This document shows, in pieces, positions 3,996 through 20,799 of a DNA stretch of 64,000 bases. Position 1 is the first letter of the stretch; each line of letters opens with the position of its first letter. The stretch spans positions 23,512 through 87,511 of the forward strand of contig JAJDJP010000003.1 in assembly GCA_030267215.1 (NCBI GenBank). The letters are read 5' to 3'. Below the pieces are notes generated by a model. That model saw only the letters and a list, made by a program, of their open reading frames with translations, was not told the DNA's origin and did no database searches. The position numbers and the translations under genes are program-made. This DNA comes from Ruminococcaceae bacterium OttesenSCG-928-A16 (GTDB lineage: Bacteria; Bacillota; Clostridia; Oscillospirales; Ruminococcaceae).

Positions 3996-4142
3996 GCCGC
4001 CGGTATTATTTTGGCAAAAGAATTTGACGGAATAGTTGCTAAAATTGCGATTGCACCATACTTGTTGAAAACTTTATAGTAAAATTGCACAAAAACGCCA
4101 ACACAACACAACCATTATTTGCCTATTTATCACAAGAAAGCC

Positions 4143-4171
4143 TTGCATTCTATAGAATATTTTTGTACAAT
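4143..4171 (+). promoter_or_regulatory. Sigma-70-type promoter of the glg operon
   Basis: TTGCAT, 17-nt spacer, TACAAT with TG extension. About 50 nt upstream of the glgB start. Confidence 0.55.
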
Positions 4172-15612: not shown

Positions 15613-16293
15613 ATGGCAAGGAGAGTGAACCTTTTGAAAAAAGCGATTGAAGAAAAAGTGGCCTACATAGTAGAAACCAAGGATGGTAAGGTGCTGGAAG
15701 TAGCAGATTTTAACCGTGGCAATGGCGGTGCCCTGCGCATTTGGCAAAACGCCGGCGGCGAAACCCAGCAATGGCTGTTAGAGCAAGTGGTTAAAGATTT
15801 TTATAAAATAACCAACGTGTTTTCTGGCAAGGTGCTGGATATTGTTATGCAAGGCGTAGACAATGGCGCCTGGGCCCACCAGTGGGATTATATTGGAGCC
15901 GACAGCCAGATGTGGCAGCTGGAAGACGCTGGCCGTGGGTTTGTTAAAATCAAATCCAAAGCATCGGGCAAATGCCTAGATTTAGTTGGCCTTGGCACCA
16001 TGGACGGTACCCCCGTGCAGGTGTGGGAAGATGTGAACGGTAAAACCCAGCTTTGGAAGCTGACCCCTGCCACCGCCAAAAAACCGGCTGCTAAAAAGGC
16101 GGCTACAAAAAAAGCTGTTGCCAAAAAGCCCGCCGCTAAAAAAGCAGCGGCACCCAAAGCGGCAGCAAAACCCGCTGCTAAAAAAGCGGTTGCTAAGCCT
16201 GCGGCCAAAGCCGTTGCCAAGCCTGCCGTAGCCGCAAAAGCCGCAGCACCTAAAAAAGCTGCAGAGAAAAAAACAGCGGAAGATAAAAAATAA
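15613..16293 (+). CDS. Ricin-B/beta-trefoil lectin domain protein without a signal peptide, with a 75-aa Ala/Lys/Pro tail
   Basis: Three QxW repeats (QQW, QMW, QLW) with GKVLD/GKCLD spacing, then an AKKPAAKK-type repeat tail. The start may be the TTG at 15634. Confidence 0.75.
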   Translation: MARRVNLLKKAIEEKVAYIVETKDGKVLEVADFNRGNGGALRIWQNAGGETQQWLLEQVVKDFYKITNVFSGKVLDIVMQGVDNGAWAHQWDYIGADSQMWQLEDAGRGFVKIKSKASGKCLDLVGLGTMDGTPVQVWEDVNGKTQLWKLTPATAKKPAAKKAATKKAVAKKPAAKKAAAPKAAAKPAAKKAVAKPAAKAVAKPAVAAKAAAPKKAAEKKTAEDKK

Positions 16294-16306
16294 ATTTTAT
16301 TGATGC

Positions 16307-16340
16307 AAAACATCCCTTGCCAATTGGCAAGGGATGTTTT
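16307..16340. terminator. Bidirectional intrinsic terminator between convergent genes
   Basis: AAAACATCCCTTGCC-aatt-GGCAAGGGATGTTTT. Confidence 0.8.
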
Positions 16341-16347
16341 GTATGTA

Positions 16348-16941
16348 CTAACTTTTTATGTGTTTTTGGGAAGCAAGTGTTGCCATACTTGGGAACATGT
16401 GCCGCAGCAGGGCATAAACCCCGTAACCCAGCATGGTGCCTAGCACGTTTAAAATAATGTCGTCAACATCGGTGTAGCGGGCAATAAAAAGTTGCGAAAA
16501 CTCTATAAAGCAGGTGAAGGCAAGGCCGCATAATGCCACTTTGTAAAAACGCTGCCACCGCTGCCATAATAGCGGCAAAAAAAAGCCTATTGGAGAAAAA
16601 ATAAGCACATTGCCGGCCAGGTTTAAAAAAGCGTGCTCCCAGTTGTTGCTGGTAACAAATTGCCAGTTGCTTTTAAACGGTATCAAATTGATATCGGTGC
16701 CGGTTTGCAGGCGGTGCCAAAAACTGCTAAATAGGGTTGCAGGGGTAAACCCCGCCCCGGGGCTAAACACCTGCGTGGCAAATGCTGCTAAAAAAACAGC
16801 AAATAAGGCCAGCAAAACTTCCCGGCTTATCTGCTTTGCCGGTGTGGGCCTTTTTTTGCGGTATAACCAGCGCAACAAAATATAAACCGGCACAAAAACC
16901 AGCATGGTAAGCGCAAGGTTTAGGGTGTAGGCCAGTGTCAT
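16348..16941 (-). CDS. VanZ-family membrane protein
   Basis: Four TM segments and the NVLIFSPIGFFLP motif. ATG at 16941 forms an ATGA overlap with the nrdG stop. Confidence 0.75.
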   Translation of the reverse strand: MTLAYTLNLALTMLVFVPVYILLRWLYRKKRPTPAKQISREVLLALFAVFLAAFATQVFSPGAGFTPATLFSSFWHRLQTGTDINLIPFKSNWQFVTSNNWEHAFLNLAGNVLIFSPIGFFLPLLWQRWQRFYKVALCGLAFTCFIEFSQLFIARYTDVDDIILNVLGTMLGYGVYALLRHMFPSMATLASQKHIKS

Positions 16942-17495
16942 GGTTTTCCCCCTCCTACCCAGCGGGGGGCGGTTTCCCAAACGGGGGTGCCTGCGGCAAG
17001 GCTTTGCGGCACCTGCAAAATGCGCTGGTTGGCGCTGCCCCTAAAACGCAGGGTAAGGTCTCGCTGTGCCAGCTCAAAACGGCCATCAATTAGGGTGTTT
17101 AGCATGCCTAGCAATTTTTGCTGGGCGGGGGTGCCCTGCAACAGTTCTTCAAAGGTGTAACCAGTGTAGGCGGCCAGCTCCAAGCCGTCGGCTTTTAAAA
17201 GCTGCGCAAGGGCGGCTAAAGCCTCCGCCTGGCAAAAGGGTTCGCCGCCAGAAAAGGTAACCCCGCTGCACAAAGGGTAGCTTTTTATACGCGTATATAG
17301 CTGGCTTACGGTGCTGATTTGCCCGCCGGTAAATGGGTGAGATGCCGGGTTGTGGCAGCCTTGGCAGGCGTGGGGGCAGCCCTGGGTAAAAATAGCGCAG
17401 CGCAGGCCAGGGCCGTCCACAATCGAGTCCCCCTCGAAGCCAAAGAGGGAGAGTGTTAAATCATTTTCAGAGGCAAAATCGGTGGCATGGTTCAT
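16938..17495 (-). CDS. nrdG: Anaerobic ribonucleotide reductase activating protein (radical SAM)
   Basis: DGPGLRCAIFTQGCPHACQGCHN cluster motif. ATG at 17495 with GAGGAT SD. Confidence 0.92.
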   Translation of the reverse strand: MNHATDFASENDLTLSLFGFEGDSIVDGPGLRCAIFTQGCPHACQGCHNPASHPFTGGQISTVSQLYTRIKSYPLCSGVTFSGGEPFCQAEALAALAQLLKADGLELAAYTGYTFEELLQGTPAQQKLLGMLNTLIDGRFELAQRDLTLRFRGSANQRILQVPQSLAAGTPVWETAPRWVGGGKP

Positions 17496-17566
17496 AGTGT
17501 TATCCTCAAAACAAGGGGCACCCGACAAACGGATGCCCTTTGTTGCTATTTATAATTTGTTTGCCT

Positions 17567-17725
17567 TTAAGCATTGTGGATATCGTGTTTTACACGGTCG
17601 TGCTCTTCGGCTTTTTTGCCGTCGTTCCATTTGTCCATAGTGCCTACCAGGTAGCCGGTAATACGGCGGATACGCTCGAACCCAATGCCTTTGCCGGCTT
17701 GTATGTTTGTGTTATTTTCCATCAT
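17567..17725 (-). CDS. Free-standing NrdD glycyl-radical domain peptide (52 aa), absent from the ORF track
   Basis: My own translation: MMENNTNIQAGKGIGFERIRRITGYLVGTMDKWNDGKKAEEHDRVKHDIHNA. AGGAG SD 6 nt upstream. RRITGYL...WNDGKKAEE..R.KH matches the canonical NrdD C-terminus (RRVCGYLG...FNAGKQEE..RRVKH). Confidence 0.8.
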   Translation of the reverse strand: MMENNTNIQAGKGIGFERIRRITGYLVGTMDKWNDGKKAEEHDRVKHDIHNA

Positions 17726-17773
17726 GATAATCTCCTTACATAAATATAGTTTGGTTATTTTGGTTTGTTTTAT

Positions 17774-20065
17774 TTAGTGGCAGCCACAAAACTCGGTAAT
17801 TTGCGGGTATTGGCGGCGCAGTTCGTCCAGCTTGTCGGGGGCAATGGGCTCGCCAGCGCGGCGGCCGCAACGGGGGCAAACTTCATCAATAATGCCAACA
17901 TAGCCGCAAACGGGGTCACGGTCTACCGGGTGGTTAATAGAGCCATAGCCCACGCCGGCATCGTGCATGCAGCGCACAATGGCCATAAAGGCCTCCAGGT
18001 TGTCGGCGGTGTCGCCGTCTAGCTCTACATAAGTAATGTGCCCGGCCGGGGTAAGGGCGTGGTAGGGGGCTTCTTTTTGTATTTTATCGTAGGCAGAAAT
18101 AGGGTGGTAAACCGGCACGTGGAAAGAGTTTGTGTAATAGTCACGGTCGGTTATGCCGGGAAGAGAACCATATTTCTTGCGGTCTATTTTTACAAACCGG
18201 CCCGAAAGCCCTTCGGCGGGGGTGGCAAGCAGGGTAAAGTTCATGCCTTTTTCCTTGCTTTTTTTGGCGCAAAAATCGTTCATATGGCTTACAATGGCAA
18301 GGCCCTTTTGCTGCATTTCGTCGCTTTCGCCGTGGTGGTGGCCGTACAGCGCTTTTAAGGTTTCGGCCAGGCCAATAAAACCAATGCTTAGCGTGCCGTG
18401 CTTTAGCACCTCGCGTATTTCATCGTCCGGCCCCAATGTTTCAGAGTCCATCCAAACGCCCTGCCCCATTAAAAACGGGAAGTTGCGAACGGATTTTTTG
18501 GCCTGAATTTCAAAGCGATCGAGTAATTGGGCGCTTACCAGTTCCAGCACATTGTCAAGGTCTTGGTAAAATTTGGTTTCATCGCCCTTTGCCTCTATGC
18601 CAAGGCGTGGCAGGTTAATAGAGGTGAACGACAAGTTGCCGCGGCCAAAAGCGGTTTGGCGGGTAGGGTCGTACACGTTGGCCATTACGCGGGTGCGGCA
18701 GCCCATGGTGGCAATTTCGGTTTCGGGGCGGCCGGGCTTGTAGTATTGCAGGTTGTAGGGGGCATCTAGGTTGGTAAAGTTGGGGAACAAGCGCTTGGCA
18801 CTGCAACGGCAAGCAAGCTCAAATAAATCGTAGTTGGGGTCTTCGGGGTTGTAGTTTACCCCGGCTTTTAGCTTAAAAATTTGGATAGGGAAGATGGGGG
18901 TTTCGCTGTGGCCAAGGCCGGCCTCGGTTGCCAGCATCACGTTTTTCATCACCATGCGGCCTTCGGGGCTGGTGTCGGTGCCGTAGTTGATGCTGGAAAA
19001 CGGCGTTTGTGCCCCCGCGCGCGAGTGCATGGAGTTGAGGTTATGTATAACCGCTTCCATGGCTTGGTAGGTGCGACGGTCGGTTTCTTTTTCGGTGGTG
19101 TTGGGCAAAAAGGCAAGTATCTGGTCGGCTGCCTCGGCGCTAACCATGGGCAGCAACACCTCGCGCAGGCTGGCAAGGTAGGTTTCGTCCAGGGCAAGTT
19201 TGGGGCCGGTGCCGGCTTTTTCTTCGGCCAGGGCCACCAGCAATTTTGCCTGGTCCTTGCTCCACTCTTTATCGGGGGCCAGCAGTTCCAGTGCTTTCAG
19301 CAGGTTTTCGGTAAACAGGCGGCGGTAGGTTTTGGCAACGCCTTTGCCCAGCGCGTAATCAAAGTTGGGCACGCTTTGGCCGCCGTGTTGGTCGTTTTGG
19401 TTGCTTTGAATGGCAATGCAGGCAAGCGCGGCATAGCTTTGGATATCCTGTGGCTCGCGCAGAAAGCCGTGCCCGGTAGAAAACCCGCCGCTGAATAGCT
19501 GGTCTAAATCGATTTGGCAGCAGGTGGTGGTTAGCGAATAAAAGTCGAAGTCGTGAATATGGATAGCGCCCTCGGTATGGGCCTGGGCATGTTGCTTGGT
19601 AACCAGGTAAGCGCTGTTGTAAGCCTTGGCAGCGGCCGAGCCAATTTGCAGCATGCTGCCCATGGCGGTGTTGCCGTCTACGTTGGCATTATCTCGCTTT
19701 AAATCGCTTTGGCGGGCATCGGCATTGGTAATTTCGTCAAACGCCTTCATTAGCGAAGTATTGGCCTCGCGCACGTTGGTGCGCTGGGCACGGTATAAAA
19801 TATAGCTTTTTGCGGCGTCTTCGTACCCGGCACGCATCAGCGCTTTTTCTACTTCGTCCTGCACGTCTTCTATTAAATAGCTTTGGCCGCTATTTTTGGC
19901 ACTTAAAGCAGCACCCACCTCGTTGGCAATTTGGGCCGCAAGGGGTACATCTTCTTTGCCGGTGGCAACCAAGGCTTTTAAAATAGCTTTGGCAATTTTG
20001 GTTTCATCGTATAATACTTCCCGGCCATCTCGTTTTGTGATGGTGCGTACCCCTGTTTTTTGCAT
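17774..20065 (-). CDS. nrdD: Anaerobic ribonucleoside-triphosphate reductase large protein, ending after the Zn-ribbon region
   Basis: 763 aa. N-terminal ATP-cone, a TTTCCQIDL motif that I recall as NrdD-typical, the thiyl-Cys loop ATMGCRTR, and C-terminal CGYVGIIDEVCPRCG...CGCH. No RxxGY loop follows the Zn-ribbon region. Confidence 0.92.
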   Translation of the reverse strand: MQKTGVRTITKRDGREVLYDETKIAKAILKALVATGKEDVPLAAQIANEVGAALSAKNSGQSYLIEDVQDEVEKALMRAGYEDAAKSYILYRAQRTNVREANTSLMKAFDEITNADARQSDLKRDNANVDGNTAMGSMLQIGSAAAKAYNSAYLVTKQHAQAHTEGAIHIHDFDFYSLTTTCCQIDLDQLFSGGFSTGHGFLREPQDIQSYAALACIAIQSNQNDQHGGQSVPNFDYALGKGVAKTYRRLFTENLLKALELLAPDKEWSKDQAKLLVALAEEKAGTGPKLALDETYLASLREVLLPMVSAEAADQILAFLPNTTEKETDRRTYQAMEAVIHNLNSMHSRAGAQTPFSSINYGTDTSPEGRMVMKNVMLATEAGLGHSETPIFPIQIFKLKAGVNYNPEDPNYDLFELACRCSAKRLFPNFTNLDAPYNLQYYKPGRPETEIATMGCRTRVMANVYDPTRQTAFGRGNLSFTSINLPRLGIEAKGDETKFYQDLDNVLELVSAQLLDRFEIQAKKSVRNFPFLMGQGVWMDSETLGPDDEIREVLKHGTLSIGFIGLAETLKALYGHHHGESDEMQQKGLAIVSHMNDFCAKKSKEKGMNFTLLATPAEGLSGRFVKIDRKKYGSLPGITDRDYYTNSFHVPVYHPISAYDKIQKEAPYHALTPAGHITYVELDGDTADNLEAFMAIVRCMHDAGVGYGSINHPVDRDPVCGYVGIIDEVCPRCGRRAGEPIAPDKLDELRRQYPQITEFCGCH

Positions 20066-20139
20066 GTGATGGTTCCTCCAAGTTAATTCTTGCCAGAAAA
20101 TCGGCCCAAAAAGCGGGCGTTTCTTCTGGCGGTACTATA

Positions 20140-20203
20140 ACTTTATCACACTAGATATAGTGCGTCAAGAAGAAAAATGCCCAAAAATACACAAGATGTT
20201 TGT
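20140..20203 (-). promoter_or_regulatory. nrd promoter with two NrdR boxes
   Basis: Minus strand reads TTGACG, 17-nt spacer, TAAAGT. NrdR-box-like palindromes at 20147..20162 (cacactagatatagtg, inside the spacer) and 20189..20203 (acacaagatgtttgt), about 41 bp centre to centre. Confidence 0.7.
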
Positions 20204-20415
20204 TTTTAATTCATACTAAAAAACTATGAGATACGGCTATGCCGCACCACAAGCGGGTTTGCCTAAGTTAGAATGTTTTTTGCAAAGATTTACTTTTATT
20301 TTATGGGCAAATATTTGAAGCCGGGAGGGGAGGGTGGTATACTGAGAACAGAAAATAATGAAGCAAACACCTATTTTAAATAGAACGGTAGATTGGTAAG
20401 CCGGCAGAGGAAACG

Positions 20416-20799
20416 ATGAGACAACCAGATAAAAAAACAGAACCCGGCGGGCGGCCTTGCCGAAAAGCAACGAGAAAAAAAGAAGCCCCCTTTTGGCCCC
20501 AGTTTTGTGGGCTGTTGTTTGGCCTGCATTTGTTGGTAACGCTTGGTTTTGGCGTTTTAGAGCTAATGAACAGCGGCCGGCCTACCAGCCCGGCTTTGGT
20601 AGATGTGTTGGGTGGGCTGCTTGCCAGTGGGGCGGCCACTGGGCTGCCGGTTATTGGTATTAGCGTGTGGCAAATCAAAACCATTCAAAAAAAGCAGTTG
20701 CCGCAGCTTACTTTGTGGTACAAGCTTTACATTATAGTGTGCGGTGTTTTGGTGGCCGGGTTGTTTTTGGCTTGGGTGGCGGCGCTTATTTTTGGCTAA
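20416..20799 (+). CDS. Small multi-pass membrane protein, function unknown
   Basis: 127 aa with a basic N-terminus and three hydrophobic segments. No recognisable motif. Confidence 0.5.
   Translation: MRQPDKKTEPGGRPCRKATRKKEAPFWPQFCGLLFGLHLLVTLGFGVLELMNSGRPTSPALVDVLGGLLASGAATGLPVIGISVWQIKTIQKKQLPQLTLWYKLYIIVCGVLVAGLFLAWVAALIFG

Follow-up and report, generated by a model that had tools for sequence, protein, structure and literature searches.

The nrdD locus

We analyzed a 64-kb stretch of contig JAJDJP010000003.1 from Ruminococcaceae bacterium OttesenSCG-928-A16 (the window, below, is this whole stretch of 64,000 nucleotides), in which three genes for a ribonucleotide reductase (RNR) of class III lie in the order nrdD-large, nrdD-small, nrdG on the minus strand (Table 1). 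The first encodes a catalytic subunit, the second a peptide of 52 amino acids and the third a radical-SAM (S-adenosylmethionine) activase. We consider it highly probable, from sequence comparison, that the first two genes together specify a genuine two-polypeptide class III RNR, in which the peptide supplies the missing last ∼35 residues of NrdD, including the radical glycine, Gly24. This reading stems from the way in which profile matches are partitioned between the two proteins, from conservation across many species and phyla, and from purifying selection; the same evidence upholds an earlier note on this DNA, which had proposed that the radical module is a free peptide, and it speaks against an artefact.

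The large protein ends in ...DPVCGYVGIIDEVCPRCGRRAGEPIAPDKLDELRRQYPQITEFCGCH, with a TAA stop at 17776..17774. The spacer that follows has a G+C content of 23%, compared with 54% in the nrdD gene, and measures 48 nt, slightly more than the 45 nt first reported. Within it, the Shine-Dalgarno (SD) sequence AAGGAG stands six nt before the ATG of nrdD-small, so the small open reading frame (ORF) does have its own SD and start, as had been described. Its product, MMENNTNIQAGKGIGFERIRRITGYLVGTMDKWNDGKKAEEHDRVKHDIHNA, consists of a variable N-terminus, a Gly loop, and a C-terminal helix and tail. nrdD-small is in frame with nrdD-large; one TAA lies between them, and the spacer holds no further stop. 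The small ORF had been thought unannotated, but GenBank carries it as hypothetical protein LJC61_01970. The ATG of nrdG (17495) follows 71 nt past the nrdD-small stop, the distance originally given. NrdG scores 128.9 bits against TIGR02491 (cut-off 126.1), also matches PF13353 and PF04055, and has the CX3CX2C radical-SAM cluster motif as CPHACQGC.

The large subunit is a class III RNR up to its zinc ribbon

nrdD-large is a close match to class III RNR profiles, with 1079.5 bits against NF005497 (cut-off 764; profile positions 3-710 of 746), 575.8 bits against TIGR02487 (cut-off 326.35) and 619.9 bits against PF13597, the NRDD family (cut-off 26.2; positions 1-530 of 562). It is identical to the NCBI protein P0121 and comprises an ATP-cone (PF03477), an alpha/beta barrel, a finger-loop cysteine (Cys456) and a Zn-ribbon region. 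The nearest solved structure is that of Prevotella copri NrdD (8P23). The finger loop, ATMGC456RTR, aligns with the same motif of the P. copri enzyme, and M454, G455, C456 and R457 are invariant among 40 relatives of nrdD-large. The MGCR form of the finger loop goes with formate-dependent class III enzymes (PMC9669993).

What the large protein lacks is the glycyl-radical (GR) loop. The alignment to 8P23 (E = 1e-178) ends at chain residue 705, just past CPxCG; profile matches end at residue 736 of 763, leaving NF005497 positions 710-746 unmatched, and no RxxGY loop is present on nrdD-large. This bears out the earlier reading of the 763-residue protein, for which the NF005497, PF13597 and 8P23 alignments all stop before the loop. 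No radical motif was found in the remaining tail either. The residue at the radical-Gly position is Gln752, and an intact loop on the large ORF, which had been named as a finding that would overturn the idea, was not seen.

The Zn-ribbon region has three of the canonical four cysteines (C720, C730 and C733), with Asp717 in place of the first Cys of the P. copri CLDC motif (NRCLDCGY...CPKCG in 8P23). Residues 717-734 (17864..17917, minus strand) hold the pattern DRDPVCGY...CPRCG. The Asp-for-Cys pattern, DRDPVCGY...CPxCG, is common to fused and split relatives in the nrdD-large clade, and the metal site in this clade may consist of three cysteines plus Asp or another ligand.

A 52-residue peptide carries the missing loop

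The peptide takes up the profiles close to where the large protein leaves them. It scores 35.5 bits against PF13597 (cut-off 26.2) over positions 533-562 of 562, and it matches NF005497 at positions 710-744 and NF011292 at positions 585-618 of 618. Its residues 16-47 align with 8P23 chain residues 707-738 (RITGYLVGT.D.WN.GK.AE.HDRV.H) at E = 1.5e-9, which places Gly24 (codon 17656..17654) over the radical Gly711 of P. copri NrdD. Jointly, the two proteins span the whole P. copri NrdD sequence, and the initial identification of the 52-codon ORF as the missing NrdD C-terminus thus stands on three separate alignments (NF005497, PF13597 and 8P23). NRDD is the only Pfam family matched by the peptide; PF01228 (Gly_radical) gave no match at E ≤ 1. 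Across the window, nrdD-small holds the sole Gly-radical-like motif inside an ORF, all other pattern matches being interrupted by stops or due to chance.

The glycyl-radical domain of P. copri NrdD comprises residues 676-739, with a Zn site, the buried Gly711 loop, and a short helix and tail (PMC11226230). By alignment, the split point falls inside this domain, with the Zn-ribbon half on the large chain and the Gly loop and C-terminal part on the peptide. The earlier note had assigned the entire domain to the peptide, which holds for the Gly loop, C-terminal helix and tail but not for the Zn-ribbon half.

The peptide is under strong purifying selection. Among 42 peptide homologs, 26 positions are invariant, including the whole of RRITGYLVG. 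Over the 33-codon core, dN/dS is 0.075 for all pairs and 0.043 for pairs that include the window, with substitution rates of 0.11, 0.11 and 0.55 at the three codon positions.

The split is conserved across species and phyla

We scanned reference genomes, one per species, and found at least 597 relatives, of which the best 80 loci were analyzed; these were ranked by similarity to the query, so the proportions of the classes are not a census. A short free-standing ORF occurs at 55 of these loci, a fused nrdD (780-816 amino acids) at 13 and a mid-sized form at 12. All but three of the short ORFs (52 of 55) directly follow a GR-less nrdD, and nrdG was detected near most. Wider searches gave a similar picture. 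The peptide returned 6004 matches, the best 120 of which are all free-standing (46-69 amino acids), and a profile search of 1.84 billion representative proteins returned 2525 clusters, the best 150 of which all measure 48-196 amino acids. Some taxon labels of metagenome-assembled genomes (MAGs), such as "Bacteroides" and "Muribaculaceae," may stem from binning errors.

From the side of the large subunit, 118 of the 120 closest proteins (67-100% identity) lack a Gly-radical motif. At four sampled loci with GR-less large subunits, drawn from different phyla, the next called gene was in every case a ∼50-residue PF13597 protein (Table 1). Among closed or cultured genomes, Allofournierella massiliensis DSM 100451 and Pygmaiobacter also have the split. 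A continuous ORF in close relatives, the other finding that had been named as decisive against the idea, was not seen: besides the loopless 118 of 120, the fused protein P0166 differs by the tail, the spacer and the peptide N-terminus. By these comparisons, the radical glycine sits on a separate ∼50-residue peptide in this bacterium, in hundreds of other species and in some phages.

The peptide genes have the signals of independent translation. At 53 loci, ATG is the start codon of every peptide gene, and an SD precedes nearly all of them; the spacer ranges from 1 to 450 nt (median, 48), and the peptide gene is in the nrdD frame at 21 of the 53, against a chance expectation of one-third.

One of the sampled loci has a different gene order. 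In Elusimicrobium minutum Pei191 (CP001055.1), nrdG comes first, followed by nrdD (746 amino acids), a 49-residue peptide gene and a formate-tetrahydrofolate ligase gene immediately past it. The nrdD tail is very short there (...EGEAVKHNNFCS), and a divergent Rrf2 regulator gene lies upstream of the locus. The adjacency of the ligase gene is a possible link to the reductase's formate supply.

Peptide genes away from nrdD

Peptide genes also occur apart from nrdD. Among the best 80 IMG/VR viral loci, 41 have a fused nrdD with nrdG, and at 37 the peptide gene is a free-standing orphan (typically 41-60 amino acids, a few longer). No nrdD or nrdG was found near the 37 orphans within up to 10 kb, several of these loci being whole contigs. 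Two orphan-bearing viral contigs that we inspected are both temperate phages. In one (L091), the peptide gene (4007-4156) lies between an HNH endonuclease and a holin-endolysin cassette, with a tail fibre gene upstream and an integrase downstream; in the other (L100), it (4004-4129) adjoins an integrase and a repressor-like gene. From this context, the viral orphans look like temperate-phage cargo (morons). In deposited phage genomes, we found only fused nrdD, in cultured Clostridioides difficile phages; the matching virome records are unannotated.

Bacterial copies have moved as well. In an Anaerostipes MAG (L008, 4838-5670), a peptide-nrdG pair follows radical SAM, NifU-like, Mrp-like and thioesterase genes, with a ∼120-nt remnant of an nrdD 3' end upstream; by its surroundings, the pair has been relocated away from nrdD. 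Because phages and some bacteria carry the peptide alone, it probably acts in trans.

A second class of free-standing radical proteins is larger, at ∼86-100 amino acids (∼145 in Saccharibacteria, L041 and L066), and has the same Gly loop behind an extra N-terminal domain of ∼55 residues. This domain has no Pfam match, and hhalign found no relation to the NrdD C-terminus or the large-subunit tails. This ∼90-residue class is an orphan at 76 of 80 metagenome loci (L247-L326), but at two loci (L251 and L316) it occupies the small peptide's place between a GR-less nrdD and nrdG, followed in L251 by an nrdR-like gene. In Ruminococcus flavefaciens FD-1, the gene is flanked by a Crp/Fnr-like regulator and rubrerythrin. 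In a minority of orphan loci, the recurring neighbors are Crp/Fnr-type regulators, rubrerythrin, nitroreductase, SAM synthetase and phage lysins; the orphan mid-sized genes have no dominant neighbor, the largest cluster being an artefact of antisense ORFs.

The large-subunit tail and the origin of the split

How might such a split have come about? In fused relatives, CPxCGRxExEGDxG leads straight into FERIRRITGY. In split large subunits, CPRCGR+EGE is followed instead by a tail of 12-50 residues (27 in the window and 12 in E. minutum). The nearest fused relative, P0166 (∼76% identity), has neither this tail nor the spacer and peptide N-terminus. In seven relatives, the long tails align co-linearly over the full length of the free peptide (hhalign Prob 89, E = 2e-6, score 29.5); none of 200 column shuffles reached this score (8.5 ± 2.3; maximum, 21.1), which falls to 20.6 once the shared GEGV prefix is removed. 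Short tails of the window's type match columns 1-16 of the long-tail alignment (hhalign Prob 93). In the resulting register, tail ELRRQ752-Y753-P lies over peptide RRITG-Y-L, and Gln752 thus takes the radical-Gly position.

On these alignments, the large-subunit tail is probably what is left of a duplicate radical module that has decayed and been cut short. The split probably goes back to a fused nrdD whose 3' module was duplicated in tandem. That event would have given a stage with a full enzyme plus a spare module; the internal copy would then have decayed into the present tail. One protein resembles such a stage. P0215 (827 amino acids, on two contigs; L246:2501-4984) has two tandem radical modules in one ORF, with motifs at 741 and 795, followed by nrdG with no separate peptide gene after it. 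MAFFT places its first GR copy on the window's large-subunit tail, and P0215 is a candidate for an intermediate, or for a re-fusion, in the evolution of the split.

Alternative explanations

One rival view gives the peptide no more than an accessory role, as a spare part or a regulator (a decoy substrate that titrates NrdG, for example), with the large protein obtaining its radical from elsewhere or no longer working as an RNR. Many large subunits do have a conserved Gly two or three residues from the C-terminus (F-C-G-C-H in the window), a few long tails keep G-Y at the aligned position (L052 and L067), and orphan peptides also occur in genomes whose NrdD may be of either type. Nevertheless, we regard an accessory role as unlikely. 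In the window's tail, Gln752 is the residue that aligns with the radical Gly, and the terminal Gly is missing in many split relatives (E. minutum, the "Bacilli" clade, L019, L021 and L026), whereas RRITGYLVG of the peptide does not vary. A Gly two residues from the end would also have no helix and tail behind it of the kind by which the loop is buried in P. copri NrdD (PMC11226230). In addition, the large subunit conserves every catalytic motif, as expected of an active RNR, and the two genes are adjacent at most of the loci found.

Recoding, whether by read-through or frameshifting, or trans-splicing by a split intein could instead restore one full-length NrdD. The single in-frame stop in the window fits this idea, and phage nrdD genes are known to hold introns and inteins (PMC3653736), but we find it very unlikely. 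The frame relation is random across loci (21 of 53), and therefore the in-frame TAA of the window is, by this comparison, coincidental and read-through is not the mechanism; many spacers have several stops or an overlapping neighbor gene, and each peptide gene has its own ATG, nearly always with an SD. For a split intein, the tail (12-50 residues, variable) and the peptide N-terminus (∼10-20 residues, unconserved) are far too short to be intein halves, no intein family is among the Pfam matches, and Rfam gives no intron. Neither recoding nor splicing accounts for orphan peptide genes far from any nrdD.

That an assembly or sequencing error, or a recent nonsense mutation to TAA, broke a one-piece nrdD into a pseudogene is vanishingly improbable, for although the shared frame and the single stop ahead of an otherwise open spacer would suit it, the same layout recurs at 52 other reference-genome loci and in closed genomes, with spacers of widely differing length and a near-chance share of in-frame loci, 118 of the 120 nearest large subunits likewise lack the loop, the spacer is AT-rich, intergenic, SD-bearing and not coding-like, selection on the peptide is strongly purifying, and the fused relatives lack the whole tail, spacer and N-terminus, a difference larger than a point change.

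Some observations weigh against the two-polypeptide reading or the history proposed for it. AlphaFold2, given the joined sequence and a multiple-sequence alignment of 40 sequences, modeled the core with a mean pLDDT (predicted local distance difference test) of 75 and the peptide as an undocked helix (pLDDT 25-48), although this alignment had almost no coverage of the peptide, and the undocked state is hence no real counter-evidence; with the joined sequence and no alignment, pLDDT was 40. Direct homology between short tails of the window's type and the peptide is weak (E = 0.0014-0.014), and we accept it solely by way of the long tails. The tail is also conserved within the window's clade: G738, E739, L749, Y753 and P754 are at least 90% conserved among 40 relatives, and many relatives' large subunits end in F-x-G-x-[DE]; the tail may have a role beyond that of a remnant. 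Finally, in a neighbor-joining tree without support values, fused and split forms interleave. This tree does not fix the direction and number of fission and fusion events.

Proposed working of the two-piece enzyme

nrdD-large has all that catalysis and regulation require apart from the radical loop, and the peptide is therefore most likely an obligatory, replaceable radical subunit, activated by NrdG. Two roles had been suggested at the outset for the peptide, and the obligatory small subunit fits the window, where the large protein lacks a Gly loop. NrdG, with SAM and its [4Fe-4S] cluster, would abstract the C-alpha hydrogen of Gly24, with the peptide either free or already bound. The Gly loop would then enter the barrel beside Cys456 and shuttle the radical at each turnover as in one-piece enzymes, while the C-terminal helix and tail of the peptide would run across the barrel top. 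Oxygen destroys a radical of this kind by cleaving the chain at the glycine. In a two-piece enzyme, such damage would cost one 52-residue peptide, and a fresh peptide would take its place, making the radical carrier a consumable, exchangeable subunit.

Activation by NrdG, docking, exchange after damage and the direction of evolution are steps that we infer; for activation and replacement we draw on analogy with one-piece NrdD and with GrcA, the spare part of pyruvate formate-lyase (PFL). The glycyl-radical domain of P. copri NrdD is highly mobile (PMC11226230), which makes a detachable radical loop mechanistically plausible. The orphan temperate-phage copies and the relocated bacterial copies lend indirect support to the idea of a replaceable part.

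A broader scenario may be drawn from these elements, which we put forward tentatively and rate slightly below an even chance. The peptide would be a diffusible, exchangeable and now obligatory radical cofactor, charged by NrdG, that fits any compatible GR-less NrdD and is replaced after O2 damage. Phages would carry it to sustain or boost host deoxynucleoside triphosphate synthesis. Some bacteria would keep relocated or extended copies, a few of them near oxidative-stress or SAM-metabolism genes. The origin of the system would lie in a full-length NrdD with a duplicated spare module.

Relation to known systems

To our knowledge, every characterized glycyl radical enzyme, including all class III RNRs that have been studied, has its radical glycine on the catalytic chain, and GrcA, a backup for PFL, is the only known stand-alone radical module. 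Our full-text search found no published description of a two-piece class III RNR, with subscription-only literature outside its coverage; this agrees with the earlier statement that no such arrangement had been characterized. A June 2026 review gives the formate lyases as the sole glycyl radical enzymes with known spare-part proteins (PMC13450708), and a detailed survey of RNR termini treats the glycyl-radical domain simply as the C-terminus of class III enzymes (PMC9669993).

By sequence, the system in the window is a class III RNR except that its radical loop sits off the catalytic chain. One-piece NrdDs (P. copri 8P23, phage T4 1H7A and Escherichia coli) share with it the barrel, ATP-cone, finger-loop Cys and Zn-ribbon region, the radical-loop sequence (RITGYLVGT...DRVxH) and the radical-SAM activase NrdG. 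However, those chains are unbroken, whereas the window's has a break that parts the Zn ribbon from the Gly loop, with an extra 27-residue tail on the large chain and an extra ∼14-residue N-terminus on the peptide.

The closest functional parallel is GrcA (YfiD). Like the peptide, it is a small stand-alone glycyl-radical-loop protein, presumably charged by the activase of the parent enzyme and presumably able to fit a barrel without a functional loop; both also have phage-borne copies, T4 encoding a GrcA homolog. The two are unrelated as sequence families, since the peptide matches NRDD (PF13597) and not PF01228, and they differ in size (52 versus ∼127 amino acids). They also differ in setting: GrcA is a backup for a PFL with a loop of its own, whereas the enzyme adjacent to the peptide in the window has none, and the peptide there would be constitutive.

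Other RNRs come in parts as well. In the split class II enzymes NrdJa/NrdJb of Pseudomonas aeruginosa and Thermus phage phiYS40, the catalytic chain is encoded by two consecutive ORFs whose products must assemble, a precedent that split RNRs can function (PMC9669993, PMC3653736). The class and break point are different, however, and the radical element stays with the barrel. Class I NrdA and NrdB are alike in concept, in that the smaller of two subunits holds a stable radical and extends its C-terminal region to the active site of the catalytic one; in contrast, that radical is a metallo-cofactor or tyrosyl radical in a ferritin-like protein, acting by long-range proton-coupled electron transfer, and NrdB is not homologous to the peptide. 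Phage nrdD genes are known in pieces, including a group I intron in T4, an intein in c-st, and fragments in phiAS4 and Lactococcus phage 949 (PMC3653736). Those interruptions are lineage specific, lie elsewhere in the gene and are due to introns, inteins, homing endonucleases or recent breakage, whereas the type seen in the window is a conserved pair of genes that has translation signals of its own and a break point that does not shift.

If the two-polypeptide reading proves right, the textbook picture of class III RNR subunits changes and moves conceptually nearer to the alpha/beta scheme of class I. The peptide would offer a minimal, synthesizable substrate for work on activase recognition, glycine activation and loop entry into the barrel, which are hard to study in one-piece enzymes because the loop has to flip out beforehand. 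It would also give strict anaerobes a cheap repair route for an essential, oxygen-sensitive enzyme. The split is common among bacteria of the human and animal gut (Ruthenibacterium, Pygmaiobacter, Faecousia, and many Oscillospiraceae and Lachnospiraceae) and is found in Elusimicrobia and phages too. Annotations widely label the peptide genes "hypothetical" and present the large partners as complete enzymes.

Other features of the locus

TABLE 1 Features of the nrdD-nrdG locus in the window, sampled split loci and members of the ∼90-residue class
Feature	Position or record	Strand	Basis or remark
Promoter-like site TTGACG-17-TAAAGT	20140..20168	-	Upstream of nrdD; overlaps NrdR-box-like palindrome
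NrdR-box-like palindrome CACTATATCTAGTG	20149..20162	-	Between -35 and -10 of nrdD promoter-like site
nrdD-large, class III RNR catalytic subunit, 763 aa	17774..20065	-	NF005497, PF13597, PF03477
Zn-ribbon segment C720...C730-P-R-C733-G734	17864..17908	-	Sequence and 8P23 alignment
C-terminal tail of nrdD-large, 27 residues (A737-H763)	17777..17857	-	hhalign, MAFFT
nrdD spacer, 48 nt, AT-rich	17726..17773	-	Read from sequence
Shine-Dalgarno AAGGAG in spacer	17737..17732	-	Six nt ahead of peptide ATG
nrdD-small, predicted radical-bearing peptide, 52 aa	17567..17725	-	PF13597, NF011292, 8P23 alignment, selection
Terminator-like hairpin, 9-bp stem (7 G-C pairs) and T-run	17506..17538	-	Between peptide gene and nrdG
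nrdG, radical-SAM activase, 185 aa from ATG 17495	16938..17495	-	TIGR02491, PF13353, PF04055
Split locus, Elusimicrobium minutum Pei191	CP001055		Closed genome; L241
Split locus, Ruthenibacterium lactatiformans			Identical large protein in 3249 index blocks
Split locus, Campylobacterota bacterium
Split locus, Lachnospiraceae MAG
∼90-residue class, R. flavefaciens FD-1	L080:2607-2873
∼90-residue class, Selenomonas sp. GACV-9	L062:4824-5108
∼90-residue class	L251:9998-10270

The strong hairpin between the peptide gene and nrdG, at 17538..17516 within the site listed in Table 1, is the top-scoring terminator-like site within 16300..20500, and it possibly lowers nrdG expression. An Rfam search of the spacer and leader gave no significant intron or other RNA element.

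Upstream of nrdD, the palindrome CACTATATCTAGTG resembles an NrdR box. Its counterpart in R. lactatiformans is TACTATATCTAGTG, at -90. The loose NrdR-box pattern is not rare, with 18 matches across the window, and no nrdR gene was found in these 64 kb.

Downstream, a gene for a VanZ-like membrane protein (16348..16941, minus strand) has its ATG at 16941, inside the last codons of nrdG, and may be co-transcribed with the nrdD-nrdG operon. Beyond it, on the plus strand (15613..16293), lies a gene whose 226-residue product joins ricin-type beta-trefoil lectin domains to a tail rich in Lys and Ala that resembles the histone H1-like protein HC2, an unusual pairing that is unconnected with the split nrdD.

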